This document shows positions 31,431-60,875 of a stretch of 64,000 bases of DNA, in pieces (within the stretch, counting starts at the first letter, position 1; each line of letters begins with the position of its first letter). This DNA is from a virus. Its lineage: Duplodnaviria; Caudoviricetes. Below the pieces are notes generated by a model, which saw only the letters and a program-made list of their open reading frames with translations, ran no database searches and was not told where the DNA came from. The position numbers and the translations under genes were made by a program. The DNA lies in IMG/VR virus record IMGVR_UViG_3300020148_000032. One strand, 5' to 3'.

Positions 31431-32891
31431 TTATATGTTTTCTTCATTTTTGTCAAATCCTCTCGACGCTATAGTATTCATAATGTTTGAAGCATCGTAA
31501 TTCTCGATATCTTCATTATTTAACCTTGCACGCATTGTTTTAAATATAATGTCTCTTTCCAATGCGCCCAAGTCTTTAGGTAAACCAAGAACGAAGTCTT
31601 TCATGACTTGTTTTTTATCACCTGAAAGTTTTTCCTGAGGTATTGCTTTCACATAATTAATACCTTTTTCAAGATCTTTAGCTACAGGAAGTACAAGATC
31701 ATTGAATCTTTTCTCTCGCAATTCTTGAAGATCTTTGAATTCTTTTAACTCTTCCACAAAGATAGTATCTTTAATAGAAGGTATGTTGTAAAGATTTCCA
31801 GTTCTTGAGCTTTCAATAAGATCTTTATATGTCACTTTAGTTTCCCTTACAGTATCCCTTACATTCTTCATGCTGAAGTTAGTCATGAGTTTGTGTAACT
31901 TAAGATAATCATCTTGCTTGATCTTAATTTGGAATTGCTTTTCTGGAGTGTCACTAAGAATTCTTACAACGACACCTTCTCTACCCTTGCGATGAGGGAG
32001 GTTGAAGGCTTCAGTAACTGATTGTGCTGGCATTGATTCGGCAACAGTGAATCCTTTATCCGCCCATTCTTCTTTAAAGTCTTGCGTGCTGTAATAAAGA
32101 CCATCGCTCTTTCGTACTGAACCTAAGAAAGCAGTATCATCTTCATCATATTGAAGTACGATTCTATTATCCTTGCCCACAAGTTCAAACAAGAATGTCT
32201 TGTCAGGGTGATTCTGAATAAGGTTACTAATTGCATCTAATCGTGCTTCATCTTTACGCAACATATTAGTGTAATAAAGAGCTTGATCGGAAGCAAAGCT
32301 TGCCTTTGTTGAGAATGCTGGAAGACCGTCTGGTGCAACATAAAGAATACCTAAGCTACCATCCATCTTGTCAGTGACTTCAGCTTTAGCATTAAAGTCA
32401 AGAGTTGAAATATCTGCCTCAGCCGAAACAGTGTTCTCTTCATCACCTAACGCCCAACCTGATTCAAGTTGACTAAGAGTGAAGAATTTACGCCATGGAC
32501 GTTGTTCAATAATTGCATCATTCATTGAATTATCACTGTAACGAATTATTAAACCTCTTGCTTGTTTAGTGACTTCATTCCAAAGCCCAGCGTATTGAGC
32601 ATTCCTTGTATAGCACAAAATGTGAAGGTCTGGATCTTCAGGGTGATTGTTGTCATAAACATATCCCTCTCTTACCATTTTCTTTAACAAGTCTAAATCA
32701 AAGGCCTGCTCTAGAGGGTAATCGTTTTTGATGGAGGTTATTGTTCTTCCAGTCATAACTCTTTCGAAATCTTTTTGAGCCAAGTCTTTTGAAGAGTAAT
32801 GATCCTCAATTGGTAACCCAAATGGGCATGACTTTCTTGCCTGGCATATCCCAGGTTCTCCGGTTTCAGGATTTAAATGGTATCGAGTCAT
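31431..32891 (-). CDS. HCCH-leader protein 1: T4 Rnl1-like RNA ligase cargo
   Basis: Leader YHLNPETGEPGICQARKSCPFG..DHYSS; ligase motifs ARGLI, RPWRKFF, DKMDGSLG, FLFELVG, EGVVV, KIKQDDY. Confidence 0.88.
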   Translation of the reverse strand: MTRYHLNPETGEPGICQARKSCPFGLPIEDHYSSKDLAQKDFERVMTGRTITSIKNDYPLEQAFDLDLLKKMVREGYVYDNNHPEDPDLHILCYTRNAQYAGLWNEVTKQARGLIIRYSDNSMNDAIIEQRPWRKFFTLSQLESGWALGDEENTVSAEADISTLDFNAKAEVTDKMDGSLGILYVAPDGLPAFSTKASFASDQALYYTNMLRKDEARLDAISNLIQNHPDKTFLFELVGKDNRIVLQYDEDDTAFLGSVRKSDGLYYSTQDFKEEWADKGFTVAESMPAQSVTEAFNLPHRKGREGVVVRILSDTPEKQFQIKIKQDDYLKLHKLMTNFSMKNVRDTVRETKVTYKDLIESSRTGNLYNIPSIKDTIFVEELKEFKDLQELREKRFNDLVLPVAKDLEKGINYVKAIPQEKLSGDKKQVMKDFVLGLPKDLGALERDIIFKTMRARLNNEDIENYDASNIMNTIASRGFDKNEENI

Positions 32892-32922
32892 GTTTTCCCC
32901 TTGATAAAGATTGTGTGTTTTG

Positions 32923-32970
32923 TTTTCTAAAAAAGGCCCAGGTGTTTTGCATCCTGAGCCTCTTTTAGAA
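32923..32970 (-). terminator. Hairpin whose arms contain the TTAGAAAA element
   Basis: ttttctaaaaaaggcccagg...cctgagcctcttttagaaaa. Confidence 0.65.
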
Positions 32971-32981
32971 AATATTAAGTT

Positions 32982-33287
32982 CTATACTGGCCTGTATGCA
33001 TCATTATTTGAAGCCTCTGGTGTGGTAGGATCTTCAAACATGATATAGGACTGATCATCAATTGACCATCCGTTGTTCAAAAGAGCTACAACATTTTTAT
33101 TCCCGTGGTGACCACAAAAGAGCAACTCTGAAGTTTTTTCATTACTGTCTTTAATGGCTCGTACGAGAGCTCTAGAGGCGCACGCATCACAACGATCTTT
33201 CTCTAGAAGAGCGTCAGTCTTAATGAAGAGCTCTCTGTTAAGAGAGTCATGCTTAAGAAGACTTTTCTCTTTAGCTAGTGTATTCAT
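32982..33287 (-). CDS. Small Zn-finger-like protein of a conserved actinobacterial family
   Basis: DRCDACASRALVR...ELLFCGHH. Confidence 0.7.
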   Translation of the reverse strand: MNTLAKEKSLLKHDSLNRELFIKTDALLEKDRCDACASRALVRAIKDSNEKTSELLFCGHHGNKNVVALLNNGWSIDDQSYIMFEDPTTPEASNNDAYRPV

Positions 33288-34775: not shown

Positions 34776-34821
34776 GTCTTTTACCCCTTGTTAGAATGTT
34801 TGAATTAATAGTATCACAGGT

Positions 34822-36007: not shown

Positions 36008-36646
36008 ATGAGGTGGAAGGATTCTCTTATGGCTTTTATTTCTCTTGAGACTTTATTGAAAGAATATAAACCTGCGTATCCAGAAAATGGAACATGGAAT
36101 GACACGATTAAAGGAATTCTCGATTCTCCCTATGATAATGAGATAGTCACTCTTCTTATGGAAGATTTACAAATGTCAGAATATTTTAGGGAACCAATTG
36201 CTCTCACTCCAGATGAAGATGTTGATGAATATGGATCTTTTGTTTGCAATGGAACGCATCGCGTAGTCGCTCATATCCTTTCCGGCTCGAAAACTGTTTT
36301 TGTTCAATACGGATTTCCAGATATTGACGAGGAGGAATCTATAGAAACCACTGAGATTCTTATTGGATTCAGTAAAAAAGATTTAGAAGAAAGATACTCT
36401 CACGATGATGCTCTTTTTGAATTATTTGACATTATTTTTACCATCTCTCGTTCTTTAAAAATCTCTGACACTCTTTGGATTGAGAGTAATTTTATGAGTG
36501 AGAACTCTGACTCTTTCTATATTTCTTATCCACGATTATCTCCAGAAGTAACTTTCGATGTAATCCGGAAGATTTATGACACTCTTGCGAAGGAAACAGA
36601 CCTTTCGTTCAGTATTTCTTCTAAAAACGAAGTTCTTGATTTTTAA
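36008..36646 (+). CDS. ParB/Srx-like domain protein
   Basis: FREPIAL...FVCNGTHRVVA. Confidence 0.55.
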   Translation: MRWKDSLMAFISLETLLKEYKPAYPENGTWNDTIKGILDSPYDNEIVTLLMEDLQMSEYFREPIALTPDEDVDEYGSFVCNGTHRVVAHILSGSKTVFVQYGFPDIDEEESIETTEILIGFSKKDLEERYSHDDALFELFDIIFTISRSLKISDTLWIESNFMSENSDSFYISYPRLSPEVTFDVIRKIYDTLAKETDLSFSISSKNEVLDF

Positions 36647-38013
36647 TCAAAGGAGAAGAAATTATAAGGGAATTTCATCCAACTAAACTTTGATAATGCT
36701 GGGTGACGCATGAATGTAGAGCTTGATGTTTCAGTTTCAACATAAGAGCTATTAGCTTTGACGTTCTTGTAATTCATTTGACCATCAGTGAAACGAGTCC
36801 TTAATTTTAAGAAAGAAACGGACTTTGAGTCTTTGTTATGGATAGGAATAATGAGCCCATCAGTTCTTTTAGAAACAAAGATCGGCTTTAAAGCAATTCT
36901 CTCATCGTTGACAAACTCTTCAATAGTTGGGATTCTACCTTTTGTAATTTCATTTTTAGAATGATTGACATAATACGCTGGAGTATTTCTTAACCCCATA
37001 AGCCTTGCAATGAATTCTCTTTTTTGAATACTATCGGAGGCTTCAAATTTTTCTTTCCAAATTGAATTAACCGCCACTTGACGTTTCTTTGAAAGTTGTA
37101 TGTATTCTGGGTCATTCCCAATTTCTGCCCAATTCTTTGTAATATATTTTGAAAGAGTCTTTTGAGCAAAAGGAGTAGCTTTCCAAGTGTGAATATTTTT
37201 AAGATCAACAAGTGGGATATCGTAAGAAGTTCCAGAGAATTGATAAGTTGCTATAGTGTTAAGATCATTAACTTTTAACTTTCCAGAAGCAATGTCAGAT
37301 TCTATTCTTGAGCGATAATATGCAAGTATTTCATTATCAATCGACTCGACTCTCTCGTCATTATAAAGATTAAAATTTTCAAGGCCTAGAGCTTCACCGA
37401 CTTTTGCGACTGAACCATTGTGTAATATGTTTGATTCCGACTTGATACTTACTGGGTAATCTTTTCCATTAACAGTAATTCCAATGTCACCTACTGTACC
37501 GTCAGTTCCATGCGTACTCTCTTTTGCCATCCACCTAAGATTCTCGATAATTTCTTTATCATTGAGGCCTTCGTGTTTGAAAATTGAATATGACACTTGA
37601 GCAATTTGAACAGCTGATTGTATCTTCTCGTCCTCTTTCTTATCATTAGAGAGTTTTGCTGCAAGAACTAACAATTCTTCATAATTTTTAGTGCTTTTAG
37701 GTAAAGAGGTAATAATATGAATAAGATCGTCTTTAGTCTTCACTTGATTAATGTCTTTACCTCTTGCAAGAGCAATAACAAGAGCCTGTGAACCTGCTTC
37801 AGTAATCTCAGTATTGCGGGCGGTGCTCCCGCCGAATGAATGAGTATTTGAAAGAACGCGCACTTTTTCTTGGGATTCTACGTTTGATTCATACGCATCT
37901 CTGGCTTCTTCTTTAGTTGAATAATGTTCAAATTTATCTCCGAAAGGGCACGCTTTTTTAGCATGACAAACACCTGGGTTGCCAGTTTTTGGATTAATGT
38001 GATATGCAGACAT
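36643..38013 (-). CDS. HCCH-leader protein 2: PD-(D/E)xK-like nuclease cargo (HaeIII-like)
   Basis: Leader YHINPKTGNPGVCHAKKACPFG..EHYSTKEEARDAYE; GTVGDIGI...YPVSIKSESNILHN resembles the GDxxDI...GxSxK signature. Confidence 0.55.
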   Translation of the reverse strand: MSAYHINPKTGNPGVCHAKKACPFGDKFEHYSTKEEARDAYESNVESQEKVRVLSNTHSFGGSTARNTEITEAGSQALVIALARGKDINQVKTKDDLIHIITSLPKSTKNYEELLVLAAKLSNDKKEDEKIQSAVQIAQVSYSIFKHEGLNDKEIIENLRWMAKESTHGTDGTVGDIGITVNGKDYPVSIKSESNILHNGSVAKVGEALGLENFNLYNDERVESIDNEILAYYRSRIESDIASGKLKVNDLNTIATYQFSGTSYDIPLVDLKNIHTWKATPFAQKTLSKYITKNWAEIGNDPEYIQLSKKRQVAVNSIWKEKFEASDSIQKREFIARLMGLRNTPAYYVNHSKNEITKGRIPTIEEFVNDERIALKPIFVSKRTDGLIIPIHNKDSKSVSFLKLRTRFTDGQMNYKNVKANSSYVETETSSSTFMRHPALSKFSWMKFPYNFFSFD

Positions 38014-38899: not shown

Positions 38900-38901
38900 T
38901 A

Positions 38902-39738
38902 TTAGTATTTAACATTAAACTTTTCTTCAAGTTCTTTCCAACTTTTCTCAGGAATGTTAACTTCTGCATAATGACCACCCCAAGGGTAATCAGTATTCTT
39001 TAGAACATACTTCATCATTTCATAATAATTCTCTTTGAACGTTTTGCGTGTTTCAAAATCGTTTCTGAGAGTAATAAACTTTGGATCGGCTTTTATTTGT
39101 TCATCAGTTTTACGTTCTTTCTTTAATTTTCGAGTATAATCTCTTAATTCTTCCTCTGCTTTATATGCTTGAGTAAGAGCAATATCTCTAGAGTCTTTAA
39201 ATTCTACATTAACGTAGAAGTTTCTATCAAAATAATCAAATTGTGATTCACTTCTATCATAATTGAAAGAGTTAGCGATAAGTGTCACTTTATCTCTAAT
39301 TACTGAAACTTCTGAGTTAATATTTACAGCAGAGCCACTTAAGTCTTTAGTTTCGTCAGGGTGTGCATTAGATTCAATAATAATACTAATAGCTTGGTGA
39401 CTAGTCTTTCGGACTTTAAAACGGAGACCTTTAGGTAAATAATTCCCTTGTACGGCTTTCTTTAATTCTTCACGAATTGAAGCGGCGATTTGGGTAGTCG
39501 AAAGTTTTTGATCATAATTTGATCCTCGCCAACCATTTCCATATGGAGCTTCAATAGTTTCTCCGTCACCAACAGTATATGTTACTTCATTAAAAGAGTC
39601 AGACTTTGCTTCATATGCTGCTCGTGCTTCTGATTTTGATTCGTAATGCTCTTCAGAAGAGCCAAAAGGGCACCTGCCCTTCTCAGCATGACAGATGCCT
39701 GGATTGCCAGTCTTAGGATTAATGTGATAAGTAGACAT
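38902..39738 (-). CDS. HCCH-leader protein 3: LPD29-like cargo (start re-placed to MSTYH)
   Basis: AAGGAG SD before ATG 39738; IAASIREELK...RFKVR...NYDRSESQFDYFDRNFY. Confidence 0.65.
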   Translation of the reverse strand: MSTYHINPKTGNPGICHAEKGRCPFGSSEEHYESKSEARAAYEAKSDSFNEVTYTVGDGETIEAPYGNGWRGSNYDQKLSTTQIAASIREELKKAVQGNYLPKGLRFKVRKTSHQAISIIIESNAHPDETKDLSGSAVNINSEVSVIRDKVTLIANSFNYDRSESQFDYFDRNFYVNVEFKDSRDIALTQAYKAEEELRDYTRKLKKERKTDEQIKADPKFITLRNDFETRKTFKENYYEMMKYVLKNTDYPWGGHYAEVNIPEKSWKELEEKFNVKY

Positions 39739-39760
39739 GAAAAACTCCTTCAATATAAAG

Positions 39761-39837
39761 TTTTTCTAAATAGTTCTTTACTTATTTTCTTCTAATTCTA
39801 GAATAATTTTATTTCCCACAGAATAAGAACCCTTGAT
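39761..39837. repeat. 77-bp direct repeat, copy 1
   Basis: tttttctaaatagttc...gaacccttgat, identical to 41507-41583. Confidence 0.95.
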
Positions 39838-39949
39838 ATGCTTCTTCTAAAGTAGAATAGTGTTCTTCAAGAGATCCAAAAGGGCAGCGACCATGAGTTG
39901 CACGACAAAGGTCGGCATTTCCACTTTTTGGATTGATATGATATGTCAT
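39809..39949 (-). pseudogene. HCCH-leader protein 4: leader only, truncated by the direct repeat
   Basis: MTYHINPKSGNADLCRATHGRCPFGSLEEHYSTLEEAY then QGFLFCGK* supplied by the repeat; AAGGTGG SD. Confidence 0.7.
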
Positions 39950-40110: not shown

Positions 40111-40497
40111 ATGAAGTATCATATTAATTCTCGTGGTGATGTAAAACCATGTAGCGCGGCTAAAGGTAAATGTCCCTTTGGTGGACAAGAGAATCATTAT
40201 CTTAATAAGGCTTTAGCTCTTAAAGCTGTTGAAGACAAGTATGAAGCTTTTTCAATAGTTCCAGATACTCAATCTTCTGTGATATCATACATTTATACCC
40301 AATATTGCATTGAGAATAAACGTCTTCATAATTCTATCAATATTGGAGACCCTGCAGAGTTATTTTATTATTCATCTGCTCAAGGTAGACTAGAATTAGA
40401 AAGAAGATTATCTTATCGTAAAGATGATAAGAGATATCATTTCCATTTCAGATTTATAAAGAAGATCCAAGTTTTGGAGACATTGTTTTTGAAGTGA
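40111..40497 (+). CDS. HCCH-leader protein 5 (start re-placed to MKYH), unknown cargo
   Basis: MKYHINSRGDVKPCSAAKGKCPFGGQENHY. Confidence 0.75.
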   Translation: MKYHINSRGDVKPCSAAKGKCPFGGQENHYLNKALALKAVEDKYEAFSIVPDTQSSVISYIYTQYCIENKRLHNSINIGDPAELFYYSSAQGRLELERRLSYRKDDKRYHFHFRFIKKIQVLETLFLK

Positions 40498-40725: not shown

Positions 40726-41490
40726 ATGTCTAAATACCATGTTAATCCAGAAACAGGTAATCCTGGAGTATGTAAAGCAACTACTGGAAATTGTCCATTC
40801 GGTAGTGATGATCTTCATTTTAATACTAAATGGGAAGCCAGAATTTCCTATGAGCAATCACAGAGAGATGAAATTCTCAAAAAAATTTATGTATCAGATG
40901 AAGATAAAGTAAGTCTTTTGACAAGAACTCATTCTGATTATAAGAAAGAGCTCAATGATATGAGGGAAAGTGGAATTCTACCTAAAAATGTAAAGATAAG
41001 ATCTTATATTGTGTCATGGACACACGATGTTTATACTAGAATCAGTGTTCCAAAAGAAAACTTTTCTGATTTTTATGAATTCCCCTCTGTATATAAAATC
41101 TCTCAAAAATATAATGAGATAAACGATTCTCTTAAAGATTTAGATCAAAAGTATCATGAAAAGTTTAGTTCTGTAAGTATTGGAAAGACTTTTGTTTATT
41201 CTTATTTTACAAGCCCTCTAGAAGATATTGAAAATGGAGAATATAGAGAAAGAACAAAGCTTAACAGAGAAATACAAAAACTTAAAGATTCTGGGCTTGA
41301 TGATTTTTCTATTAATAATCTGGACAAAATCAAAGAACTTAAAGCTAGTTATTCAAAGAAAAATTTAACTCTCTTAAAAGTCAAGAAAATGCAAGAATAT
41401 ATGTGGAAAAATAAAGATAAGGTACTCCCTGAAAAGAATTGGGAAGAATTACTTACACGTTTTGATCTTAAAGATGATCTTATGAAGTAA
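40726..41490 (+). CDS. HCCH-leader protein 6, diverged paralogue of protein 3
   Basis: YHVNPETGNPGVCKATTGNCPFG..LHF; LPKNVKIR vs LPKGLRFKVR; LPEKNWEEL vs IPEKSWKEL. Confidence 0.8.
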   Translation: MSKYHVNPETGNPGVCKATTGNCPFGSDDLHFNTKWEARISYEQSQRDEILKKIYVSDEDKVSLLTRTHSDYKKELNDMRESGILPKNVKIRSYIVSWTHDVYTRISVPKENFSDFYEFPSVYKISQKYNEINDSLKDLDQKYHEKFSSVSIGKTFVYSYFTSPLEDIENGEYRERTKLNREIQKLKDSGLDDFSINNLDKIKELKASYSKKNLTLLKVKKMQEYMWKNKDKVLPEKNWEELLTRFDLKDDLMK

Positions 41491-41506
41491 TTCTTTTTAG
41501 AAAAGT

Positions 41507-41583: not shown

Positions 41584-41851
41584 CTGTAGAATAATAGTAC
41601 AATTCTATTGGAGAACCAACTAATGTACCATTATGCATAATATTGTTTATATATACAATATTGTGAGTATTTTAAAGAAACTTCAGACGATTCTATATCA
41701 GGGTCTCTCGTGAAAGTATCATGAGTTAACTCAAAAACTTTTCAGAATCTCTCTTGTTTTCAAAATGAAATTCTGAACCTCCAAAAGGGCAAGGTTTCTT
41801 TACTGCTTGACATTTACCTATTTGTTGAGTCTCTTCATTAAAGTGATACAT
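41555..41851 (-). pseudogene. HCCH-leader protein 7: frameshifted paralogue of protein 5 (absent from the ORF track)
   Basis: MYHFNEETQQIGKCQAVKKPCPFGGSEFHFENK...stop at 41726. Other frames continue HDTFTRDPDIESSEVSLKYSQYCI and NNIMHNGTLVGSPIELYYYSTDQG, which align with protein 5. Confidence 0.8.
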
Positions 41852-41853
41852 TC

Positions 41854-42741
41854 TTACTCCTCAATATGAGAAATCAACGCATCATATTCAGACCAGAAAA
41901 CAAATTTGGCAGTCCTCTCTCCGTTAAAATACGCCTCAATATTAATTTTTCCTTGGTCAATATCATCAATAAATGTGTGCAGATTGTGACTAACCATAGT
42001 TAAATCTGTATATCGCACTTTTGTTTGTCCGCGATCTTCTTTAATGTCATAATGAGCAATAGCGATATGCTCGTATTTCTCTTTTATTCTATTATTTATT
42101 TGATCAAAAGTCCAATAAAAATCTTGAGTGTTAGTGAGATTGCTCCCGTCTTTATCAGCTACAATCATTCGTAATTTCTGGTGTTTATAGTCAACAAATA
42201 AAGCAAACCGATGATTTCCAATAGTTTGCCAACTTTGTGTACTCATTGATTTTCTTACATAACCTTTACCAATAAGAGCTTTGAATTTATTTTTATTTAT
42301 AAGTGAGAGTGAACCCAGAGTAACATTATTTCCTCTTCCCGATGATCTATGTGTTTTTAATTCCACTTGACCGAGGTCCGCTGAAGCTTTAGAATCTTTC
42401 TTTAAACCAAAGAGTTCTTCAAGTTTTAATCCAGGGGTTCCTTTATTTTCATCATAACCTTTAAGGGTAAAGAATTTTCCTTTAATGTCTTTTTCGAATT
42501 TGTCTTTTACCTGTTGTGGAGTACTTGCAAGGGAGTTATCTTTTGCGTTGTAAGAAGAATCACTTTTCCCTTCTTTCTTTACGAAAGTTTTTATTTCGGA
42601 AGTTTTATATTGGTTTTCTATATGTTGGTAGGCTGCCGACATAGAATCGAAATGAGATTCGGCGTTTCCATATGGACATGTCTTTTTAACTGCATGACAC
42701 GCGCTAGGAACAAGTGTTTCAGGATTAATGTGATATAGCAT
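41854..42741 (-). CDS. HCCH-leader protein 8: MvaI/BcnI-like restriction endonuclease cargo
   Basis: YHINPETLVPSACHAVKKTCPYG..SHF; GTPGLKLEELFGL...ADLGQVELKTHR...VTL. Confidence 0.7.
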   Translation of the reverse strand: MLYHINPETLVPSACHAVKKTCPYGNAESHFDSMSAAYQHIENQYKTSEIKTFVKKEGKSDSSYNAKDNSLASTPQQVKDKFEKDIKGKFFTLKGYDENKGTPGLKLEELFGLKKDSKASADLGQVELKTHRSSGRGNNVTLGSLSLINKNKFKALIGKGYVRKSMSTQSWQTIGNHRFALFVDYKHQKLRMIVADKDGSNLTNTQDFYWTFDQINNRIKEKYEHIAIAHYDIKEDRGQTKVRYTDLTMVSHNLHTFIDDIDQGKINIEAYFNGERTAKFVFWSEYDALISHIEE

Positions 42742-46431: not shown

Positions 46432-46534
46432 GGTCAAACATGTCTCTCTTCTGTGCATGACATTCGTTTATGTCACCAGTATGAGGGTTTATATGATACA
46501 TGAAATTTTTCTAATCATTTTAGTTAAAATATAA

Positions 46535-48724: not shown

Positions 48725-48765
48725 TCTAAACCTTTTAATTCAACATTGTTATCTATGTTTCTATA

Positions 48766-49921: not shown

Positions 49922-50719
49922 TTATCGAAGATATTCTCCTAAAGCGTCGGAAAGCATGTCACTAGCAGTAAACCACACTTGAGCCTCTTTAGTATCACCT
50001 GAAGCGTCAGCGCGATGAGCTCTCAAACGCCACTCTTCTTGCAAATCATTAAGCTCATTCATATTTTTACTAAACTCAGCTAAAGATTTAGAGTATTCCA
50101 TCTTTTGCGAAATTGGATCAAGTTCTGCGCGAGCTTTAAGGATAGTACTAATTTGCCCTTTAACATATTTTGAAATACCGTCAACATCATCTTTCAATTT
50201 TGTAATTTTGTCTCTTGTGGATAAGTAACTTTCTGTTACATCATATGAAGGTTCAGGGGTAACCCAAGGGTTATCATCGTGTAAAGGTTGTGCAAGAACG
50301 CTTCCGTCACTATTAACAGTCACTAAAGCAGGTTTATCAGAGTCACTTTCCTCATCGTAATAGTAACCCTCGTATTGCCCAGCAATAAGCATTCTTCCCA
50401 TATCAGTTGGGAAACCCTCAGTGATAGGCATATCATACGGATCATCTGGGTTTGGGATAGTAATGAAAGTATCTTTAGGCAATGTAGGAATATTATTTGA
50501 AGACTTTGAAGAATCAAGGTCTAATTCTGTTGGTGCCACTTCTGAATCAGCAATTCTTTTCAAAGTAGAGACAAGGTTTGCTTCTTGAATTTTCTCGTAT
50601 GCAAGAATTGCTTCTTCCTTAGACGAATAGTGTTCTTCGACAGAACCGAATGGGCAACCACCGCTTGTTGCTTTGCAAATTCCAGGTTCACCTTTACTAT
50701 TAATATGAAATTTAGACAT
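49922..50719 (-). CDS. HCCH-leader protein 11, acidic/helical cargo
   Basis: FHINSKGEPGICKATSGGCPFGSVEEHYSSKEEAILAYE. Confidence 0.8.
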   Translation of the reverse strand: MSKFHINSKGEPGICKATSGGCPFGSVEEHYSSKEEAILAYEKIQEANLVSTLKRIADSEVAPTELDLDSSKSSNNIPTLPKDTFITIPNPDDPYDMPITEGFPTDMGRMLIAGQYEGYYYDEESDSDKPALVTVNSDGSVLAQPLHDDNPWVTPEPSYDVTESYLSTRDKITKLKDDVDGISKYVKGQISTILKARAELDPISQKMEYSKSLAEFSKNMNELNDLQEEWRLRAHRADASGDTKEAQVWFTASDMLSDALGEYLR

Positions 50720-51659: not shown

Positions 51660-52835
51660 TTACTCTTTATAGAATTTTGCTCCTGATAAGAATCCATCAC
51701 CGCGCTCAGTAGTATCAACAAAGAACTTGTAACCTTCGATTGATCTGAGTTCTCCCTTATTAGTAACGTGGCGAATGTCAGAATACTCGTTACCTTTAGA
51801 GTCATGTAATGCATCATAAGTGTCATAAGAGTTCCAACCAGTAATTCTTCTTACTACTTCATCAGTTCCATTCTCTATTTTTACCCATAAATTCTTAATG
51901 TTACCTGACGAGTCAGTGATAAGATCGCTCCCTTTAATTTCGTGAACATAAATTGGTTTCCCTGGACGTTCCATATTAAATTTATATGGTTTAGCTTTTT
52001 CTCTCCACTCGATTTGCTCTTGTACTTTTTTTATGAATTCTCTATTTTTGAGACCTTCAGAAATAAGATTATTAGCTTTTTGGGTATACTCATCATATTC
52101 TTTCTTTTCTCTTAAAGAAATTTTATGTTCTTCTTTTAAGAAAGAAATATTTTGATTAGTTTTCTCAATAAGATCGGAACCTTTTCTGGATACAAAGAAG
52201 TCATCTAATACTTTCTTCATAAACTCTTTCTGTTCCTGATTTTCTAGTTCTGGAGTAAGTTTCTCTTTAGTAATCTCACTGTTAATAAACTCTTGCTTTT
52301 TATCTCTTAATGGAGTAAAGAAATGCTGAGCCCATATTTTAGGTAAACCTTGTTGCCGAGCGTATGCTTCTAGGGCATCAATAGTTTGATCGTATTCTCT
52401 ATTCTCTTTAGCTCTATACATTGCTAAATCAAATTTTTCAGGATCTTTATAATGATGTTTAAGGTAAAACCTTGCATTCCATTCAGATATTTTTTCGTAA
52501 AGAGAGAAGTATTCATCAGATATTTTTTCTTCTTTTGATTTAAGCCTTTGGATAAAAGTTTTAAGTTCATTTTCGTTAAGTTCAAAAAGTTTTTCAAAAT
52601 CTGGCTCATCAGAATTATCCCATTCGGAATTTATGAGTTCTACTTGAATGTGACTAGTGCTTGTATAGACTTTTTGTTTTGGAAGGGGGACAAGGACATC
52701 CGAGTACTTTTCTTCTATATGTTTTTGGGCTTCTTCTTTACTTTTAAAGTGCTCGTTATTAGACCCTAGTGGGCAATTATTGTCTTTTGCGCGACAGATT
52801 GCTGGTACACCTTTTTTGTTAATATGATATGTCAT
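51660..52835 (-). CDS. HCCH-leader protein 12, coiled-coil cargo
   Basis: YHINKKGVPAICRAKDNNCPLGSNNEHFKSKEEAQ. Confidence 0.8.
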   Translation of the reverse strand: MTYHINKKGVPAICRAKDNNCPLGSNNEHFKSKEEAQKHIEEKYSDVLVPLPKQKVYTSTSHIQVELINSEWDNSDEPDFEKLFELNENELKTFIQRLKSKEEKISDEYFSLYEKISEWNARFYLKHHYKDPEKFDLAMYRAKENREYDQTIDALEAYARQQGLPKIWAQHFFTPLRDKKQEFINSEITKEKLTPELENQEQKEFMKKVLDDFFVSRKGSDLIEKTNQNISFLKEEHKISLREKKEYDEYTQKANNLISEGLKNREFIKKVQEQIEWREKAKPYKFNMERPGKPIYVHEIKGSDLITDSSGNIKNLWVKIENGTDEVVRRITGWNSYDTYDALHDSKGNEYSDIRHVTNKGELRSIEGYKFFVDTTERGDGFLSGAKFYKE

Positions 52836-52873
52836 AGAAACTCCTTCGATATGAACTTATCTAACTTATTGGG

Positions 52874-53373: not shown

Positions 53374-53748
53374 TTAAACGAATTCTAGTTGGGAAGAACT
53401 TATATTAATAGCTCGGGCGTTCTTTTGAAGATAAGCTCTTAGTGTAGAATTAGTTTTTCTCACTCTTTGTTCTGTTCGTAAGGCGTTTAATTCCTTAAAA
53501 GTTTCATTGACCTCTCGAGTAACTCTAGCGGCTTTAATAGCTTTAGTGTTATTCAAGCGGAGGTTTTGAATTCTTGAAGAAGCTCCTAATGTTTGAAATT
53601 GACCATATTGTTTAGAGGCGATATCTTCGTATGCTCGTCCTGCTTCTTGAATTGTCTCGTAGTGTTCTCCGCCTGCTGCTCCATAGGGACAATCGCGGAC
53701 TGTAGCCTTACATTCTTTAGGCCCGTCGTCAGTAATGTGAAACTTCAT
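53374..53748 (-). CDS. HCCH-leader protein 13, short basic cargo
   Basis: FHITDDGPKECKATVRDCPYGAAGGEHYETIQEAGRAYE. Confidence 0.8.
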   Translation of the reverse strand: MKFHITDDGPKECKATVRDCPYGAAGGEHYETIQEAGRAYEDIASKQYGQFQTLGASSRIQNLRLNNTKAIKAARVTREVNETFKELNALRTEQRVRKTNSTLRAYLQKNARAINISSSQLEFV

Positions 53749-53805: not shown

Positions 53806-54237
53806 TTAAATATTCAAAAAGCGAAGCGCATCAAGACGCCAAGTAAGATATTTTTCAATAAGAAGAATAAAACCTTCGTCTTCTATTACATAAGTATTTC
53901 TTTCGGGGAAATCTCCGTCACCTAAATCTAAAACAACTTCGAGATTTTCCATAATATACACTTCTTTACCTAATAAAGAAAAACGAATATTATAGAGAGT
54001 TTCAGAATTATCTTTAATTCTAAAAACCGCACTTAATTCTTCAATAGTATAAAGAGAAATTTCATCGCCTGAAGTTAACCGTTTTCTTTCAGCTTCAATG
54101 TTCTTCTTTAACTCATCAAGAAATTCTTTTACAAGCTCGCTAGAAATTCTCATAAAGAACCCTTTCTTTGTAGATATTTTTAATATCATGAAAAGGTTAG
54201 GCTTGATAACCTGCCATACTTTGATCATATTTGTCAA
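53806..54237 (-). CDS. Hypothetical protein (true start probably MRISS at 54153)
   Basis: AAAGGG SD before the internal ATG. Confidence 0.55.
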   Translation of the reverse strand: MTNMIKVWQVIKPNLFMILKISTKKGFFMRISSELVKEFLDELKKNIEAERKRLTSGDEISLYTIEELSAVFRIKDNSETLYNIRFSLLGKEVYIMENLEVVLDLGDGDFPERNTYVIEDEGFILLIEKYLTWRLDALRFLNI

Positions 54238-54727
54238 AATAATCTTTATTCATATTGTTATTAACAATTGAGGATTCTACCCTGCTTGTTGTAATTTCAA
54301 GATCTGGATTATCGACTCCTATAAAAAGAGCTGAATCAGTAGGTTCGAGACGCACAATTCTCAATGAATTATACTTTTCAATTTTTCCGTCTTTTTTATG
54401 AACTGTAAGATTCCATACGTCATCTCCGTATTCAGTTTCAGCAACATATTGAAGAACATAAGTTGATCCACTCTTTGTAGAGAATGCTAGTCGATCACCT
54501 GGGCGAGCTGACCTATATTTAGCAGCATTAATAACTGGGAGCCTACTATAGAGAACATCCATTCTGTTCTCTCCATCCTGAATGGCTTCTTGAACATTAT
54601 CGAAATGTGTAGGAGCATCTGGGTCCATTCGAGAATATGGACATTGTCCATGTTCAGCTTTACAAATACCTACTTCTCCAGTATTGGGATTAACATGAAA
54701 TACTTTATCCATTATCTGTTCATCCAA
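54197..54727 (-). CDS. HCCH-leader protein 14, small beta-rich cargo
   Basis: FHVNPNTGEVGICKAEHGQCPYS...THFDNVQEA; FSTKSGSTY. Confidence 0.78.
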   Translation of the reverse strand: MDEQIMDKVFHVNPNTGEVGICKAEHGQCPYSRMDPDAPTHFDNVQEAIQDGENRMDVLYSRLPVINAAKYRSARPGDRLAFSTKSGSTYVLQYVAETEYGDDVWNLTVHKKDGKIEKYNSLRIVRLEPTDSALFIGVDNPDLEITTSRVESSIVNNNMNKDYFDKYDQSMAGYQA

Positions 54728-55407
54728 TCATCCGCATCTTCATATTCATATGGATCCTCATCATCCCAATAATCTTCCTCTTCCTCTTCATAATAATCAC
54801 CAGTAGGAATTGAAAGATTACCAATGAGAATATCCCCATCTTCAGTTCGAGTAAGTCGAGTATTCTCGCTAAAAGTAACAAAAGATCCTAAATCGTCAAT
54901 ATCTGTTTCTTTAAGCCCTTGGGCTTTCAATAATTCTACATCAACTACACCAATCATTCCTGAGTCAACTCCATAAACTCGACCTTTTTGATCAGTATAT
55001 TCACCATCACCATATTGTGTACTTAAACCTATGACAAGATGATTATCAATAGTTCCAGCAGCAATGACTTCTCTTTCTTTATAAGTAGCATTAACCCACC
55101 TTTGCCATACAGTACCCACATCTTTTACCGCATAACATGGGTCACCTACAAAGTAACGACCTGCTGGAATGTTAATGGCTGTACCGGCTGATGAGTACAT
55201 TGATTTGTCAACTTCTTTTACTTCAGCAGTATTTGGATCATATTTTTTCACTTTATTGAAAGAAGGTTGTTGTCTTTTCTCGAATGATGCGCGAGCTTCT
55301 TCTTTAGATTCAAAATGATTCTCGGCTCCACCATGAGGGCAAGGTTTCTTGTTAGCTCTACAGATACCTGGATTCCCAGTTTCCGGGTTAATGTGATAAA
55401 CAGTCAT
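54712..55407 (-). CDS. HCCH-leader protein 15: GDPCY-family (DUF4241-like) cargo
   Basis: YHINPETGNPGICRANKKPCPHG..NHFESKEEAR; YFVGDPCY, TQYGDGEY, VDSGMIG; acidic tail. Confidence 0.75.
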   Translation of the reverse strand: MTVYHINPETGNPGICRANKKPCPHGGAENHFESKEEARASFEKRQQPSFNKVKKYDPNTAEVKEVDKSMYSSAGTAINIPAGRYFVGDPCYAVKDVGTVWQRWVNATYKEREVIAAGTIDNHLVIGLSTQYGDGEYTDQKGRVYGVDSGMIGVVDVELLKAQGLKETDIDDLGSFVTFSENTRLTRTEDGDILIGNLSIPTGDYYEEEEEDYWDDEDPYEYEDADDWMNR

Positions 55408-57709: not shown

Positions 57710-59116
57710 TCAACCCTCTAGAATACGAACTCTAGTAATAATAGTTTGGTCAACACCATTATATTCTCCATGGTATTTTACTGAACCAGAACTAACTGTA
57801 ATCTCGTCACCTGGCTTATAATCAAGTTCTTTATTTGCCCACCACACTATCTGGTGACCTTCCTCATCTTTCATGATCATTTGTGAAGCATTATGATCAT
57901 TGTCATAATAACCATAACCTGCTTGTAGTCGAACTTTATTTTCCATTACAGTAAACTTTGTACCTTTTGGAATTTTTTCTTTAGGAGTTAAATAATGACC
58001 GTGAGTGAATGTCTCACCTTTTTTCTTGCGAGCCTCAGCAGCAGCAAGTTTCATTTCCTCACGATATGGACCAACAACGGCGCTGGCAAGAAGTCCAGTG
58101 TGCTTTGGAGAGAACCAATCACTTTTTGAAAGAGCCTGTAGGTTGGCTCCATAGTCTGATTGAGAATCAAGTGTATTAATGTATTCTTTAACTTTATCAA
58201 TCTCTCCGTTATTAGAATATTCTTGAGCTTTTGCGAACATTTCTTCACGCCAAGCTTGATCAACATTCCTACCACCGTAAAGAACATCCGCCACTAATTG
58301 TTTAGTAGGGACACCATCCCATGCAGAGGCAGACACATAAGCTTTACCCCCATTAGTAACAGCAAGTGATATTGCGAGAACGTCTTTTACTGGAAGGTGA
58401 TATGAATGGGCAGAGTCTTTAGAGAAAATGAGAGGATCACTATCATCTGTTTCTTTAGGAGTTGGATCAAATGTGAGAGACCATAAACCTTCAGGTTTAA
58501 TACCTAAGTATGATTGAACACAAGATGAACCAATCTGATGTAGTTTTCCATCGGGACCCTTAATAATGTAAGTTTTAGACCTTGGGCGAGAAATTCCACA
58601 ATGTTCACATTTAAGACTGTCAGGGCGCCAACCTTTAAGGTCAGTATTTTTAGCGGTACTCATGATCATACCGCCTTCTTCTTGATTAACGACAGCTTGG
58701 AAGGTGTAACCCTCTTGACCAATAAGAGGTTTGTTGAGAGTGAGGTCGTATACTTTTTTAGAAACTGGGAATAGCATTCCTTCTAATTGTGAGGTGACCA
58801 TTCGTTCAGAAACTTCATATTCGAAGCGTTCGCTGATACCAGCTTTTTCAAGTCGACGGTTAGCCTTCTCAATATTCTTTATTGCTTGAAAATAGCGAGA
58901 TTCGCTGTATGTGTATGTGTATTTTTCTTCAGGGTCTTCCTCTTGCTCTTCATCCCTAAGATATTCAGTGGGAAGGTTCTTATCTTTCATTGACTCTTCG
59001 TACATTTTCAATGTTTCATCGAAAGTGTCACCGTGTCCTTCTTCCCCATATCTGCAATGGCCGACTTCAGCACGGCAAATTCTTACTTCACCTTTAGGAT
59101 TAACGTGGTATCTCAT
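57710..59116 (-). CDS. HCCH-leader protein 16: Zn-ribbon + C-terminal OB-fold-like cargo
   Basis: YHVNPKGEVRICRAEVGHCRYGEEGH; CEHCGISRPR...QIGSSC; MKDEEGHQIVWW...VKYHGEYNGVDQTIITR. Confidence 0.7.
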   Translation of the reverse strand: MRYHVNPKGEVRICRAEVGHCRYGEEGHGDTFDETLKMYEESMKDKNLPTEYLRDEEQEEDPEEKYTYTYSESRYFQAIKNIEKANRRLEKAGISERFEYEVSERMVTSQLEGMLFPVSKKVYDLTLNKPLIGQEGYTFQAVVNQEEGGMIMSTAKNTDLKGWRPDSLKCEHCGISRPRSKTYIIKGPDGKLHQIGSSCVQSYLGIKPEGLWSLTFDPTPKETDDSDPLIFSKDSAHSYHLPVKDVLAISLAVTNGGKAYVSASAWDGVPTKQLVADVLYGGRNVDQAWREEMFAKAQEYSNNGEIDKVKEYINTLDSQSDYGANLQALSKSDWFSPKHTGLLASAVVGPYREEMKLAAAEARKKKGETFTHGHYLTPKEKIPKGTKFTVMENKVRLQAGYGYYDNDHNASQMIMKDEEGHQIVWWANKELDYKPGDEITVSSGSVKYHGEYNGVDQTIITRVRILEG

Positions 59117-59165
59117 TATTTCACCTTCTTTTAAAGAACCAATATACAGTTTTTTCTAAAACACT

Positions 59166-60047
59166 TTAGTGGAACAAAAGGTAATTTGTAGCATCTATCC
59201 CGGCTTTAGCTCCATCGCCAGCAGCTATAATAACTTGTCGATATTCTGGGTTCTTAACGTCGCCCGCTACAAAGAACCCATCCACAACAGGAGCGTCTAT
59301 AAACCCGTCAGACTGCAGCCTAGCGATAGTCTCCGCGACCTTAGAATTAGGTGTTTGACCAACAGCTATAAAACAACCATTAACGGTAAATTCTTCCCCA
59401 TTGTTTGTTAAGACTGATTCAAGATTACCATCTAAACCCTTAAATTCTTTGACTTCAGTATTAAAATGAACAATAATGTTCTCTTTAGAATTCACTTTTT
59501 CGACTGCAGCACGAGAGGCTCTCCATTCTTCTTTCCGAATGAAAACGTGTACTTTGCTTGCGAGTTGACTAAGGTAAAGAGCCTCCTCAGCGGCAGTCTC
59601 ACCACCACCAACAAGAATCACTTCCTCATCTTGGAAGAACATTCCATCACAAGTCGCACAGTATGATACTCCAGAAAGCTCTTCACCTGGTTTGTTTAGT
59701 TTTTTAGGAGTGCTACCAGTTGCATAAATAACTGCTTTAGCAAGATGTTGTTTTTTCTCGCCCTCCATAGTAATAGTAAAGAAACCAGATTGTTCTTTCA
59801 CTATTTCTTTTACATCACCACGGTAGAATTCACCGCCCAATTCTTTTACATGTTCAGTAAACTTATTAGCCATCTCAATACCTTCAGTACCAAGTAGACC
59901 TAAATAATTGTCGATGACTTCAGTAGTTGTTACTAAACCACCTGGCATTGAACCTTCGATAATAAGAGTGGAAAGGTTTGCTCGTAAAGTGTAAACGGCG
60001 GCGCTTAAACCAGCTGGTCCACTACCAATAATAATAATGTCGTACAT
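59166..60047 (-). CDS. trxB: Thioredoxin reductase
   Basis: IIGSGPAGLSAA, GVSYCATCDG, VGGGETAAEEA, FVAGDV, QVIIAAGDG. Confidence 0.93.
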   Translation of the reverse strand: MYDIIIIGSGPAGLSAAVYTLRANLSTLIIEGSMPGGLVTTTEVIDNYLGLLGTEGIEMANKFTEHVKELGGEFYRGDVKEIVKEQSGFFTITMEGEKKQHLAKAVIYATGSTPKKLNKPGEELSGVSYCATCDGMFFQDEEVILVGGGETAAEEALYLSQLASKVHVFIRKEEWRASRAAVEKVNSKENIIVHFNTEVKEFKGLDGNLESVLTNNGEEFTVNGCFIAVGQTPNSKVAETIARLQSDGFIDAPVVDGFFVAGDVKNPEYRQVIIAAGDGAKAGIDATNYLLFH

Positions 60048-60089
60048 GTAAAAATCCTCTAAATAAAGTGTTCTTATCTTACCAATTAA

Positions 60090-60875
60090 TTATTTTAATG
60101 ACTTGAAAACAAATGCGCGGTCATTAAGGAAATTAAATAATTCTTCATCTCTCAAATCTTTTTTAATCACTTGAAAATTAATTTCTTTAAGAGAATTAAA
60201 GAATAGATCTCTTTCTTCGGGAGAGAATCTCACATCAAAATCTAAACCTTGATCTATTGCTCTGTTCCCAAGAATGAGTGTTCTATAACATGACTTGATT
60301 GACTTTAATTCCCTTTTATTAGTTAATTCTTTATCTTTCATTCTTCGAAGTGTAGAAAGGGTGAACGAAATTGCTTTATCATGATACTCATAAGGAGAAT
60401 ATCGAAAATTCTGCAAGAAGTCTTGATACTTAGTGTCAGAATATTGTAGAGTGTGAGAATAAAGTAGGTCGATTTCTGGAAGAGAAGTATCAAAAAGTCT
60501 TCTTACATAATGAAATACTGGATACACTCTTAAATCATATTCATCATTGATGTACTGCTTATCATTAGACTTCCCTTCAATAATGATAGATAAGTCAATG
60601 TCGCTTGTTGGAAGAGATAAACCATACATGTGACTTCCAGAATAACCATAAGATTGAACGTCTCTTACTGACGGGTGTTCTCTAATAGCTTTAGCAAAAA
60701 TTTCTGGAAGGTTTTCTTTTTTAGTAATAGATTCAATAGCCATTGTTTGCATGACTTTTTCGTATGTCTCTCTTGCTTTTTCTGGAGTATCTTCGTGTAT
60801 GAAACTATATTTGCAAGCTCTAGTTGTTGCCTGACATGGTTTAACTTCACCATTTTTAGTAACGTGATACTTCAT
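60090..60875 (-). CDS. HCCH-leader protein 17: Pol-beta superfamily nucleotidyltransferase cargo
   Basis: YHVTKNGEVKPCQATTRACKYSFIH; GSHMYGLSLPTSDIDL...YDLRVY (GS..DxD..D). Confidence 0.8.
   Translation of the reverse strand: MKYHVTKNGEVKPCQATTRACKYSFIHEDTPEKARETYEKVMQTMAIESITKKENLPEIFAKAIREHPSVRDVQSYGYSGSHMYGLSLPTSDIDLSIIIEGKSNDKQYINDEYDLRVYPVFHYVRRLFDTSLPEIDLLYSHTLQYSDTKYQDFLQNFRYSPYEYHDKAISFTLSTLRRMKDKELTNKRELKSIKSCYRTLILGNRAIDQGLDFDVRFSPEERDLFFNSLKEINFQVIKKDLRDEELFNFLNDRAFVFKSLK

Follow-up and report, generated by a model that had tools for sequence, protein, structure and literature searches.

A recurrent HCCH head on seventeen proteins of an uncultured extrachromosomal element: a candidate metal-stabilised docking domain with variable cargoes

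The stretch of DNA analysed here (64,000 nt; hereafter the window) harbors seventeen open reading frames that all open with a head of about 42 amino acids, named HCCH after its His, Cys, Cys and His residues, and they lie on the minus strand except where plus is indicated. Some of the cargoes behind the head belong to recognisable families: g32891 (31431..32891, 486 aa; TAGAAA at 32924-32929, 38 nt upstream) joins a head at residues 1-45 to an Rnl1-type RNA ligase (Pfam PF09511 RNA_lig_T4_1, residues 110-329, E 2.4e-13); g42741 (41854..42741, 295 aa; TAGAAA 42765-42770) carries an MvaI/BcnI-type restriction-endonuclease fold (Pfam PF15515 MvaI_BcnI, residues 85-270, E 4.9e-13); g55407 (54712..55407, 231 aa; TAGAAA 55440-55445) consists of a head (1-45), a linker (48-59), a 'GDPCY' region (63-200) that matches phrog_20074, the 'GDPCY' family, from residue 78, and an acidic tail; and g59116 (57710..59116, 468 aa; TAGAAA 59153-59158) bears a phrog_2319-type cargo (residues 66-464, E 2e-51). 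Weaker resemblances were observed in g60875 (60090..60875, 261 aa), which has a divergent head of 49.7 bits and a nucleotidyltransferase-like cargo (NTP_transf_2, E 0.004, sub-threshold), and in g39738 (38902..39738, 278 aa; TAGAAA 39763-39768), which has the top-scoring head of all (80 bits) and an LPD29-like stretch at 21.1 bits, under the 27-bit Pfam cut-off. No family was found in Pfam or PHROG for the cargoes of g38013 (36643..38013, 456 aa; TAGAAA 38037-38042) and g40111 (40111..40497, plus, 128 aa), and unknown cargoes are likewise carried by g40726 (40726..41490, plus, 254 aa; TAGAAA 40696-40701); g48724 (47759..48724, 321 aa; TAGAAA 48758-48763 and TAGATA 48750-48755); g49887 (49345..49887, 180 aa), with a divergent head of 49.7 bits that lacks the CPFG knuckle, and a TATAAT-like box but no TAGAAA motif upstream; g50719 (49922..50719, 265 aa; TAGAAA 50752-50757); g52835 (51660..52835, 391 aa; TAGATA 52858-52863); g53748 (53374..53748, 124 aa, a short cargo; TAGAAA 53781-53786); and g54712 (54197..54712, 171 aa), with a longer loop between knuckle and His. 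The description of the cargoes as unrelated in the earlier note therefore stands for RNA_lig_T4_1, MvaI_BcnI, phrog_20074 and phrog_2319, whereas NTP_transf_2 and LPD29 are sub-threshold and the rest returned no family from Pfam or PHROGs. Two further genes are stand-alone HCCH mini-ORFs, g39949 (39809..39949, 46 aa; TAGAAA 39973-39978), which ends early at the 98-nt repeat D3 (39743-39840 and 41489-41586), and g41851 (41726..41851, 41 aa), which lies directly downstream of g42741, lacks its own promoter motif and is probably transcribed together with that gene. The start of g54712, also without its own motif, overlaps the end of g55407, and these two are probably co-transcribed as well. The start first assigned to g54712, at 54727, is a TTG, while the ATG at 54712 places the module 4 residues from the Met.

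The head follows the consensus [KR][YF]H[IV]NPxTGxPGxCxAxxxxCP[FY]Gx4H[YF]x[ST]KEEAxxA[YF]E, in which the H, C, C and H are invariant in 17/17 heads of the window and in 148 diverse metagenomic representatives, and 16 of the 17 window heads also share the Ala that comes behind the first Cys. An HMM built from the seventeen leaders and run on the six-frame translation of the whole window recovered every copy at 49-80 bits, so that the sharing of one N-terminal module by 17 reading frames was fully borne out. The next match is a truncated eighteenth copy on the minus strand (46355..46501; 29 bits at 46501; TAGAAA 46508-46513), a relic that keeps the first half of the head only, MYHINPHTGDINECHAQK..., with no CP[FY]G...H continuation in any frame; all other matches in the six-frame search fall below 6 bits, and no copy occurs at positions 1-31000. 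None of the window's replication and metabolic genes carries the head, in agreement with the earlier description. On average, pairs of leaders are 52% identical in nucleotides, 41% in amino acids and 42% at the third positions of codons, and both synonymous codons occur at the invariant H, C, C and H sites; the proposal that the module is under protein-level selection is thereby confirmed.

A differential distribution was also observed for a promoter-like motif, TTTAGAAAA, found about 30-40 nt upstream of tagged genes. The form TAGA[AT]A occurs 20-60 nt upstream of 12/17 tagged genes and of 3/61 untagged genes (Fisher p = 5e-8), and of the five tagged genes without it in that range, two adjoin or run into a tagged gene on their upstream side and a third has its copy at a distance of 14 nt. 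In G001, a relative of the element, this motif lies in front of 8/8 recovered HCCH genes, although the recA and dnaB of G001 are only 67-68% identical to those of the window. Duplication of the head could have carried the motif along, in which case it would not define a regulon; against such hitchhiking, the motif persists although identity of the leader DNA has dropped to 52%.

The head alone is predicted by AF2 as a confident beta-hairpin plus helix (pLDDT 82), and the full-length model of g55407 reproduces the same secondary structure, followed by a linker at residues 48-59 with pLDDT below 50 and a separate cargo domain. The ligands are spaced approximately as H-x10-C-x6-C-x7-H, that is, four ligands at fixed spacing as in zinc fingers. 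The view of the head as a small ligand-bearing module is thus supported by four invariant residues of metal-ligand type within a confidently predicted mini-fold, and on the invariant ligands together with this predicted fold the head probably binds zinc. Foldseek with the predicted head returned nothing at E<=0.001, VIA-align returned Kunitz-like topology only (Z 4.8 or lower), and no known zinc-finger fold was returned by these fold searches. At the sequence level, the head gave no match above threshold in Pfam, NCBIfam, PHROG or PDB, and described zinc-finger families gave no above-threshold match in Pfam, NCBIfam or PDB; judged by sequence comparison, the HCCH head is an undescribed domain, in line with the earlier statement that it was not recognised as a named one.

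Neither 50,697 phage records nor 72,556 plasmid records yielded the HCCH head, which occurs in 5,251 metagenomic clusters (50% identity) at E<=1e-3 and in 1,258 at E<=1e-10. Among the best 150 metagenomic representatives, 142 carry it at most 12 residues from the protein start, five have a C-terminal copy that follows a Ser/Thr-rich linker, their stop codons lying within the contig, and eight contain two copies; the claim that the module is always at the extreme N-terminus consequently applies to the great majority and fails for the C-terminal and two-copy forms. The C-terminal subfamily ends in a basic tail of 12-17 residues, and mini-proteins of 146-149 aa with the arrangement head-coiled-coil-head exist in metagenomes. 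The C-terminal, tandem and bivalent heads fit a binding module that can be tethered at either end, together with bivalent adaptors. The word leader, as first applied, was not upheld, as the head appears to be a folded, portable domain with C-terminal and two-copy forms rather than a leader peptide, and as to the leader cleavage that the earlier note named as a check, no conserved motif or conserved residues follow the helix among the 148 representatives and the 17 window proteins. The metagenomic cargoes include HD, Zeta-toxin kinase, ART, HNH, GNAT and DnaQ-type exonuclease domains, as well as topoisomerase zinc finger, pentapeptide repeats and HEAT. The cargo families of g55407 and g59116 occur headless in cultured-phage PHROGs and in metagenomes, the headless homologues of the g55407 cargo being 138-163 aa long.

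The carrier is an uncultured extrachromosomal element of about 437 kb, its type being read from two relatives of 310 and 438 kb (G001 and G002) that share recA and dnaB with the window. Both relatives contain a conserved cluster of transfer type (Tad-like/AAA_10), which comprises T2SSF twice, T2SSE, a CpaE-like gene and an AAA_10 ATPase; within the G001 cluster lies one HCCH gene. Searches of G001 and G002 with Terminase_6N, Terminase_6C, TerL_ATPase, the phage G TerL, Phage_portal and Phage_capsid (HK97) gave no match, although divergent capsid genes may escape them. With a Tad-like/AAA_10 cluster detected instead of terminase, portal or HK97 capsid in the two relatives, the loading into a virion proposed in the earlier note is unsupported.

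The reading favored here, to which about even credence is given, is that the HCCH head is a metal-stabilised docking domain which marks a class of co-regulated accessory enzymes for one shared partner. Each tagged gene would encode a two-part protein, in which an independently folding HCCH mini-domain of about 42 residues is connected through some 15-65 residues of polar, disordered linker to a variable cargo, mostly a nucleic-acid- or protein-modifying accessory enzyme, with many unknowns besides. In the predicted layout, the beta-hairpin would hold the His and the first Cys, the CP[FY]G knuckle would supply the second Cys, and the last His would be followed by an amphipathic helix (..KEEAxxAYE), the four ligands most likely holding one Zn2+. 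The head would act as a portable binding module and not as a cleaved signal, a common docking handle which brings the co-regulated accessory proteins to one partner, either the element's or the host's, and the class would be defined by the TTTAGAAAA motif before each transcription unit.

An unlikely alternative is that the head serves as a delivery tag, a handle for a transfer machine or virion by which dozens of proteins enter the new cell with the DNA and act before transcription, with tRNA repair, host DNA cleavage and ADP-ribosylation as examples. Such a role is consistent with cargoes suited to early host takeover or counter-defence (Rnl1 ligase, restriction-endonuclease fold, ARTs, Zeta-type kinase and ART-PolyVal neighbours) and with the transfer-type cluster of G001 and G002 and the HCCH gene inside it in G001; the relaxase-like protein and pilus ATPases of G001, moreover, have disordered acidic arms whose NPF/NPL-acidic motifs could be docking sites. 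The virion version is left without a vehicle, since no virion genes were detected in the two large relatives. The type IV secretion signals known to date lie at the C-terminus or inside the protein, and their substrates are threaded unfolded, whereas 142/150 HCCH heads are N-terminal and would be metal-stabilised. A tagged DnaQ-type exonuclease would work equally well if made after entry, no conserved processing site follows the head, and the tagged genes are individually provided with a promoter-like motif, which points to a class expressed de novo. The basic tail of the C-terminal subfamily may recall bipartite type IV secretion signals, such as the BID domain plus basic tail of Bartonella Bep effectors and relaxases, in which a folded domain is combined with a positively charged tail. 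Like BID, the HCCH head is a small, predictedly folded domain common to diverse cargoes, and the relatives of the element also encode conjugation-type ATPases; BID has about 100 residues and is helical, metal-free and C-terminal, unlike the mostly N-terminal HCCH heads, so the likeness would be one of logic only. In phage T4, the internal proteins IPI-III and Alt carry a capsid-targeting sequence (CTS), a short peptide without structure that the prohead protease cuts off. This sequence shares with the HCCH head the character of an N-terminal element common to unrelated mobile-element proteins, including host-modifying ADP-ribosyltransferases, and differs from it in that the head is a predicted folded module of 42 residues with four invariant metal-ligand residues, is followed by no conserved cleavage site, also occurs C-terminally and in two copies, and belongs to elements in whose relatives G001 and G002 no capsid, portal or terminase was detected. 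That the head is a short unstructured peptide of the T4 CTS type is contradicted by the confidently predicted 42-residue fold, obtained alone and at full length, and by the invariant H, C, C and H. A more specific proposal, judged decidedly improbable, is that a clade of giant (0.3-0.8 Mb) virion-less bacterial elements uses the head as a universal cargo handle, with dozens of co-regulated enzymes docking through their heads on the NPF/NPL arms and a Tad/conjugation hybrid delivering these proteins with the DNA into the recipient; the arms would be the acidic ones of the relaxase-like protein and pilus ATPases, and, if true, this would represent a new type of protein-delivery system with a zinc-domain signal.

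It is distinctly unlikely that the head is a zinc knuckle which binds RNA, tRNA or modified DNA of the element and so concentrates the enzymes on their substrate. Many cargoes would act on nucleic-acid ends or bases (RNA ligase, nucleotidyltransferase, restriction-endonuclease fold, HNH, HD, DnaQ-type exonuclease and topoisomerase zinc finger), and this richness in RNA- and DNA-end enzymes was counted against the docking reading. The conserved aromatics of the head profile, Y2, F23, Y30 and Y40, could stack on bases, but they resemble core residues of a 42-residue fold, and a few members match CCCH-type zinc-finger models weakly and below threshold, with no nucleic-acid-binding zinc-finger structure among the fold-search matches of the predicted head. 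The pentapeptide-repeat, HEAT, GNAT and kinase cargoes have no nucleic-acid role, and the net charge of the head is close to zero (mean -0.13, sd 2, range -6 to +5), atypical for nucleic-acid-binding knuckles, which are basic; the neutral charge was counted for the docking reading.

It is very improbable that the head works as a cap, sensitive to metal or redox state, through which the whole expression class is regulated in its folding, stability or timed degradation, for example by the Lon-like protease of the element or by host proteases. Besides a Lon-like protease (3662-5701), a thioredoxin-reductase-like gene and an FMN reductase, the window has a gene for a ClpB-type AAA+ protein that lacks the N-domain (44299-46431) and is situated amid the tagged genes, and a Cys2His2 site could respond to oxidation or zinc supply. 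This basis is, however, gene neighbourhood only, and the ClpB-type protein has a full M-domain with no ClpP-docking loop seen. Degrons are normally short peptides, unlike the conserved fold of the head, and stand-alone and bivalent head proteins are hard to square with them. Hardly credible at all is mutual binding of the heads, by which bivalent minis would cross-link the enzymes into one body: it needs no separate receptor gene and could use the head-coiled-coil-head minis and tandem-head proteins, but a neutral 42-residue domain with one short helix offers little interface.

Compared with described systems, the docking-domain candidate shows partial likenesses. Polymorphic toxins carry N-terminal trafficking domains such as LXG, PAAR, MIX and others (Zhang et al. 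2012, PMC3482391), and the polyvalent proteins encoded by phages and conjugative elements combine 2-15 domains per chain, including LPD-type domains (Iyer et al. 2017, PMC5512222). Both resemble the HCCH proteins in a constant head with swappable conflict-type cargo, and the repertoires overlap in ART, restriction-endonuclease fold, HNH, kinase and an LPD-like stretch; the HCCH head matches none of their domains and, unlike the trafficking domains, is linked to no export system. The HCCH proteins also fall outside the polyvalent class, being small chains of 124-486 aa with one head and one cargo, in which the sole LPD hit is LPD29 (21.1 against 27 bits). A zinc ribbon that has undergone a lineage-specific expansion, to about 35 copies, in Bacillus phage G (Iyer et al. 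2021, PMC7824862) is likewise a small zinc-type module multiplied in one giant element, and since the HCCH profile has no match at E<=0.1 in the phage G genome (JN638751), the head is a different module. The haloarchaeal DUF7552 (PF24422) gave weak hits in 15/130 heads (residues 10-44, E up to 5, best 0.004); membership was rejected, the best scores (G002-G004) being 13-16.5 bits against a 27-bit gathering cut-off. The predicted head superposes on Kunitz residues 18-57 (Z 4.1-4.8, rmsd 2.2-2.6 A, 40-43 residues), a Z below 5 for a 45-residue model lying within the range of a common arrangement, and Kunitz/BPTI domains are secreted with three disulfides, whereas the HCCH head has two Cys only.

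All 17 genes credited by the earlier note with a shared N-terminal leader were observed, by motif scan and translation, to open with [YF]H[IVLF][NT]...C.A....C[PRK][FYL]G....H, an in-frame ATG at 54712 being the likelier start for the gene placed at 54727. Alignment of the first 45 residues of the 17 proteins with MAFFT showed H5, C16, C23 and H31 to be invariant and A18 nearly invariant in this His-Cys-Cys-His module (HCCH, hereafter the head). An HMM built from the 17 heads and searched against the full 64-kb window translated in six frames recovered all of them at 49.7–80.1 bits, together with a truncated copy at 46501 (−) that covers HMM positions 2–20 (29 bits) and reads MYHINPHTGDINECHAQK before the motif is lost in all three frames; nothing else in the window scored above 6 bits, and no copy was found by HMM in the replication half (1–31000). 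Two of the 17 tagged ORFs stand alone as minis, 46 and 41 residues long. Both synonymous codons are in use at the invariant sites (CAT/CAC 7:10 and 11:6 for the two histidines, TGT/TGC 13:4 and 7:10 for the two cysteines), and the mean pairwise identity of the leaders is 52% for nucleotides, 41% for amino acids and 42% for third codon positions. The codon usage and the third-position identity thus indicate conservation at the protein level, as had been proposed, and not recent gene conversion.

The 17-row alignment yielded a confident AlphaFold2 mini-fold with a mean pLDDT of 81.9, predicted to comprise strands at residues 3–6 and 13–16, a short turn and a helix at 35–44. The same elements are seen in the full-length model of g55407 (54712–55407, −), where they are followed by a linker at 48–59 (pLDDT <50), the cargo domain at 63–200 and an acidic tail; the linkers of the other tagged proteins are polar and exhibit no common motif. 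A profile of 159 head copies from 150 representatives reads [KR][YF]H[IV]NPxTGxPGxC[RK]AxxGxCP[FY]Gx4H[YF]x[ST]KEEA[RQ]xA[YF]E, and the Cys2His2 ligand set suggests zinc as the bound metal. The heads of the window's tagged proteins fall within no Pfam or PHROG family, and no NCBIfam family was found among 130 isolated heads, for which a Pfam scan at E ≤ 5 gave weak matches only, the commonest being DUF7552 (15 members, best E 0.004). Identity with DUF7552 was rejected, as the genome searches reach 13–16 bits against a cut-off of 27 bits; among the control genomes, this family exceeds its cut-off in Haloferax only. Profile search of PDB sequences gave chance-level matches (E 0.43 or worse), Foldseek with the head model returned nothing at E ≤ 0.001, the ESM Atlas feature search gave no usable match, and the ESM Atlas structure search retrieved only unnamed viral-labelled clusters bearing the same head. 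The sole VIA-align match, which recurs with both models, is a Kunitz-like hairpin-plus-helix (Z 4.1–4.8, rmsd 2.2–2.6 Å over 40–43 residues); given that Z and so tiny a model, the modelled resemblance is a common arrangement and no evidence of kinship. For the cargo domain of g55407, the best matches of a fold search did not exceed Z 2.6. No description of the head was found in the literature, and it is treated here as an undescribed, putatively metal-binding domain.

Among 1.84 billion proteins, the profile matched 5,251 cluster representatives (clustering at 50% identity) with E ≤ 1e-3 and, at the stricter limit of E ≤ 1e-10, 1,258. The head lies within 12 residues of the start in 142 of the 150 best representatives, so that the extreme N-terminal position claimed for it by the earlier note is the rule and not universal: among the same 150, five proteins carry it at the C-terminus behind a Ser/Thr/Gly-rich stretch, and eight are two-headed, with tandem heads as well as proteins of 146–149 residues with a head-coiled coil-head arrangement. 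The C-terminal heads lack a preceding Met, bear a distinctive TGR[PA]NKC signature and end in a 12–17-residue basic tail, and their placement is real since the stop codon falls inside the contig for two of the five. Most cargoes of the metagenomic head proteins are unnamed; among the identifiable ones are HD, Zeta-toxin/AAA_33 kinase, MvaI/BcnI, ADP-ribosyltransferase, HNH, GNAT, RNase_T-type exonuclease, topoisomerase zinc finger, pentapeptide repeats and HEAT. The cargo of g55407 ('GDPCY', phrog_20074) occurs with the head in proteins of 234–245 residues and without it in proteins of 138–163 residues, and the cargoes of g55407 and g59116 (phrog_2319) match cultured-phage PHROGs from profile position 2–4, beginning at residues 78 and 66, respectively. 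The head with its linker is thus an add-on to otherwise complete proteins.

The hexamer TAGA[AT]A, mostly inside TTTAGAAAA, is located 20–60 nt upstream of 12 of the 17 tagged starts vs 3 of ~61 untagged window genes (Fisher p = 5e-8). In g40111 the motif stands 14 nt upstream, outside that range, while g41851 and g54712, which have none, each abut or overlap an upstream tagged gene. The same motif was observed ~33–56 nt upstream of all eight HCCH genes located in G001, a 309.5-kb IMG/VR relative with 11 heads, whose recA and dnaB share only 67–68% nucleotide identity with those of the window. The motif has thus been retained while the leader DNA diverged, which argues from sequence comparison that the tagged genes form a co-regulated class, each with its own putative start signal.

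The window lies on a 436,884-bp contig, and its DNA occurs in ant metagenomes of three studies and partly in compost, none of the listed sequencing runs that contain it being recorded as RNA; given these sources, the element is unlikely to be an oral 'Inocle' (PMC12340149), although size and GC are similar. Genes in the left half of the window specify a DnaB-type helicase, a RecA/UvsX-type recombinase, further helicases, a Lon-like protease, an RCC1-repeat protein, a glycosyltransferase and a ParB-like protein. A second relative, G002 (IMGVR_UViG_3300012642_000011; 437,576 bp), gave 19 head matches. Hits on this record fall in mirror pairs (x, ~437,576−x) that extend 107 kb or more inwards from both ends, so that most of G002 is an inverted duplication, which may reflect a palindromic or hairpin-type replicon or else an artefact of assembly; IMG/VR labels it 'inverted terminal repeats' and 100% complete. 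Neither relative matched Terminase_6N, Terminase_6C, TerL_ATPase, the phage G large terminase, Phage_portal or Phage_capsid, in searches that very divergent capsid genes could escape, and with this the positive basis for the capsid loading suggested in the earlier note is removed. In each, a single region contains several T2SSE ATPases along with one conjugation-type ATPase (AAA_10); in G001 this region (238000–257900, locus L017) runs as T2SSF; T2SSE with a homing-endonuclease (intein-like) insert (L017:1797–5006, +); T2SSF; a DUF4379 protein; AAA_10; a CpaE/ParA-like protein; an HCCH-tagged protein of 402 residues; a 544-residue protein with no named family; a PilT-like T2SSE (L017:15686–17410, −); and an acidic, relaxase-like protein of 801 residues (L017:17398–19803, −). 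The first of these T2SSE ATPases, a Tad-type protein of 1,069 aa, probably contains an intein, as Hom_end/LAGLIDADG matches fall at aa 686–757. Other heads were observed on contigs of 683–765 kb rich in unknown genes, with ART-PolyVal, DUF87, seryl-tRNA synthetase and TAGT near. Head-bearing loci range from 36% to 58% GC; at 55% GC, a JGI 3300055085 contig, with four successive ~415-aa genes at 6526–12540 including the HCCH protein P0188, and with two split topoisomerase IA genes, DUF3228 and NlpC/P60 adjacent to them, places the head on much higher-GC giant elements too. The negative virion searches point to a giant plasmid-like or conjugative element as the carrier, and doubt is raised whether these 'viral' IMG/VR records are phages at all.

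A tethered binding module is the best fit to the data: the head is predicted to be folded and metal-stabilised, is neutral in charge (mean net charge −0.13, sd 2.1, 159 copies), is joined by a disordered linker, can sit at either end of a protein, sometimes occurs twice in one chain and has been attached to proteins existing elsewhere without it. On these properties, the preferred reading, given about an even chance, is that of a common docking handle that would bring co-expressed accessory enzymes to one shared partner. Delivery of the tagged proteins together with the DNA by the Tad/AAA_10 machine, a virion being the less likely vehicle, is an unlikely alternative for which one lead comes from the G001 transfer proteins: the relaxase-like protein has a Ser/Asp/Glu-rich arm with two SFNPFVDEEDE copies, the TadA-like ATPase (L017:1797–5006) begins MVEFTNPF, and the PilT-like ATPase (L017:15686–17410) carries a pair of NPLLDD motifs within an acidic extension of its N-terminus. 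These NPF/NPL-acidic motifs may represent a short linear docking motif; none was found in the window proteins or in 217 HCCH proteins examined, and none was seen in the G002 loci examined. A nucleic-acid tether is somewhat less probable again, a metal- or redox-dependent stability switch is improbable, and a self-assembly tag is the least credible of all. Co-folding of two heads with Zn scored 0.01 against a mark of 0.42, which is evidence neither way.

The logic of a docking handle shared by diverse cargoes is known, and the domain itself is new. The T4 capsid-targeting sequence, the trafficking domains of polymorphic toxins, polyvalent proteins and BID-type secretion signals all combine one constant element with many cargoes, and the head is a member of none of them. 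Bacillus phage G carries its own ~35-copy zinc ribbon (PMC7824862), which is a different module, since no head was matched in this phage by profile. Also new are the C-terminal and bivalent forms, the link between the promoter-like motif and tagged genes, which is conserved in relatives, the cargo homologues that lack a head, and carriers that look like Tad/conjugation-type elements and not demonstrable phages. One undescribed domain of 42 residues heads no fewer than 5,000 distinct protein clusters; so far it is almost wholly restricted to uncultured giant extrachromosomal elements, where in some stretches a tenth of the genes or more carry it. Were its partner identified, it would become clear how such elements organise or deliver their large and rapidly changing arsenal of enzymes directed at the host; the head and the promoter-like motif together offer a sequence handle for listing that arsenal in any metagenome, and the tagged unknown cargoes are a ready catalogue of candidate counter-defence and host-takeover functions.

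With one 45-aa head as query, tblastn gave no match at E ≤ 0.05 in 50,697 phage or 72,556 plasmid records, a search that distant copies could escape, and 25 kb of the region compared with both collections by megablast also remained without a match. Two cases were found among cellular genomes. A 'Pararhizobium' MAG has 19 head copies, all on small contigs, which are probably binning carry-over. Gordonia sinesedis JCM 12126 encodes a single 94-residue head protein next to an Lsr2-like gene, in a stretch of lower GC, and no copy was found by profile in 300 further genomes of its order. In the locus concerned (BAAAJU010000007, 424521–432641), the head protein lies at 2981–3265 (+), a second, degenerate HCCH copy without the last His at 3650–3880 (+) and the Lsr2-like gene at 1437–1844 (−), the region being 53–59% GC and close to the contig end. 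This cultured actinobacterium could serve as a tractable experimental entry point.

Several untagged genes are interspersed among the tagged ones in the window. These include a ClpB-type double AAA+ protein that lacks the N-terminal domain and retains a complete coiled-coil M-domain, encoded in the middle of the HCCH gene array (44299–46431, +); a two-gene module of a MoxR-type AAA+ ATPase and a DUF2201_N putative metallopeptidase, adjoining tagged genes (33336–35892, −); and a 101-aa DUF7455 protein (CxxC...CGHH, E 3e-16) adjoining the tagged RNA ligase (32982–33287, −), a family name that the literature search met only in a paper on the Mycobacterium abscessus SigD regulon. Radical-SAM activase-like, FMN reductase, metallophosphatase and thioredoxin-reductase-like genes were also observed there. 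A direct repeat of 98 nt, 91% identical with a long exact core, occurs at 39743–39840 and 41489–41586, contains the TAGAAA motif and the tail of one truncated tagged ORF, and flanks an inverted pair of tagged paralogues; short-read contigs of other samples end exactly at this repeat, which looks like a recent cassette duplication or shuffling among HCCH genes.
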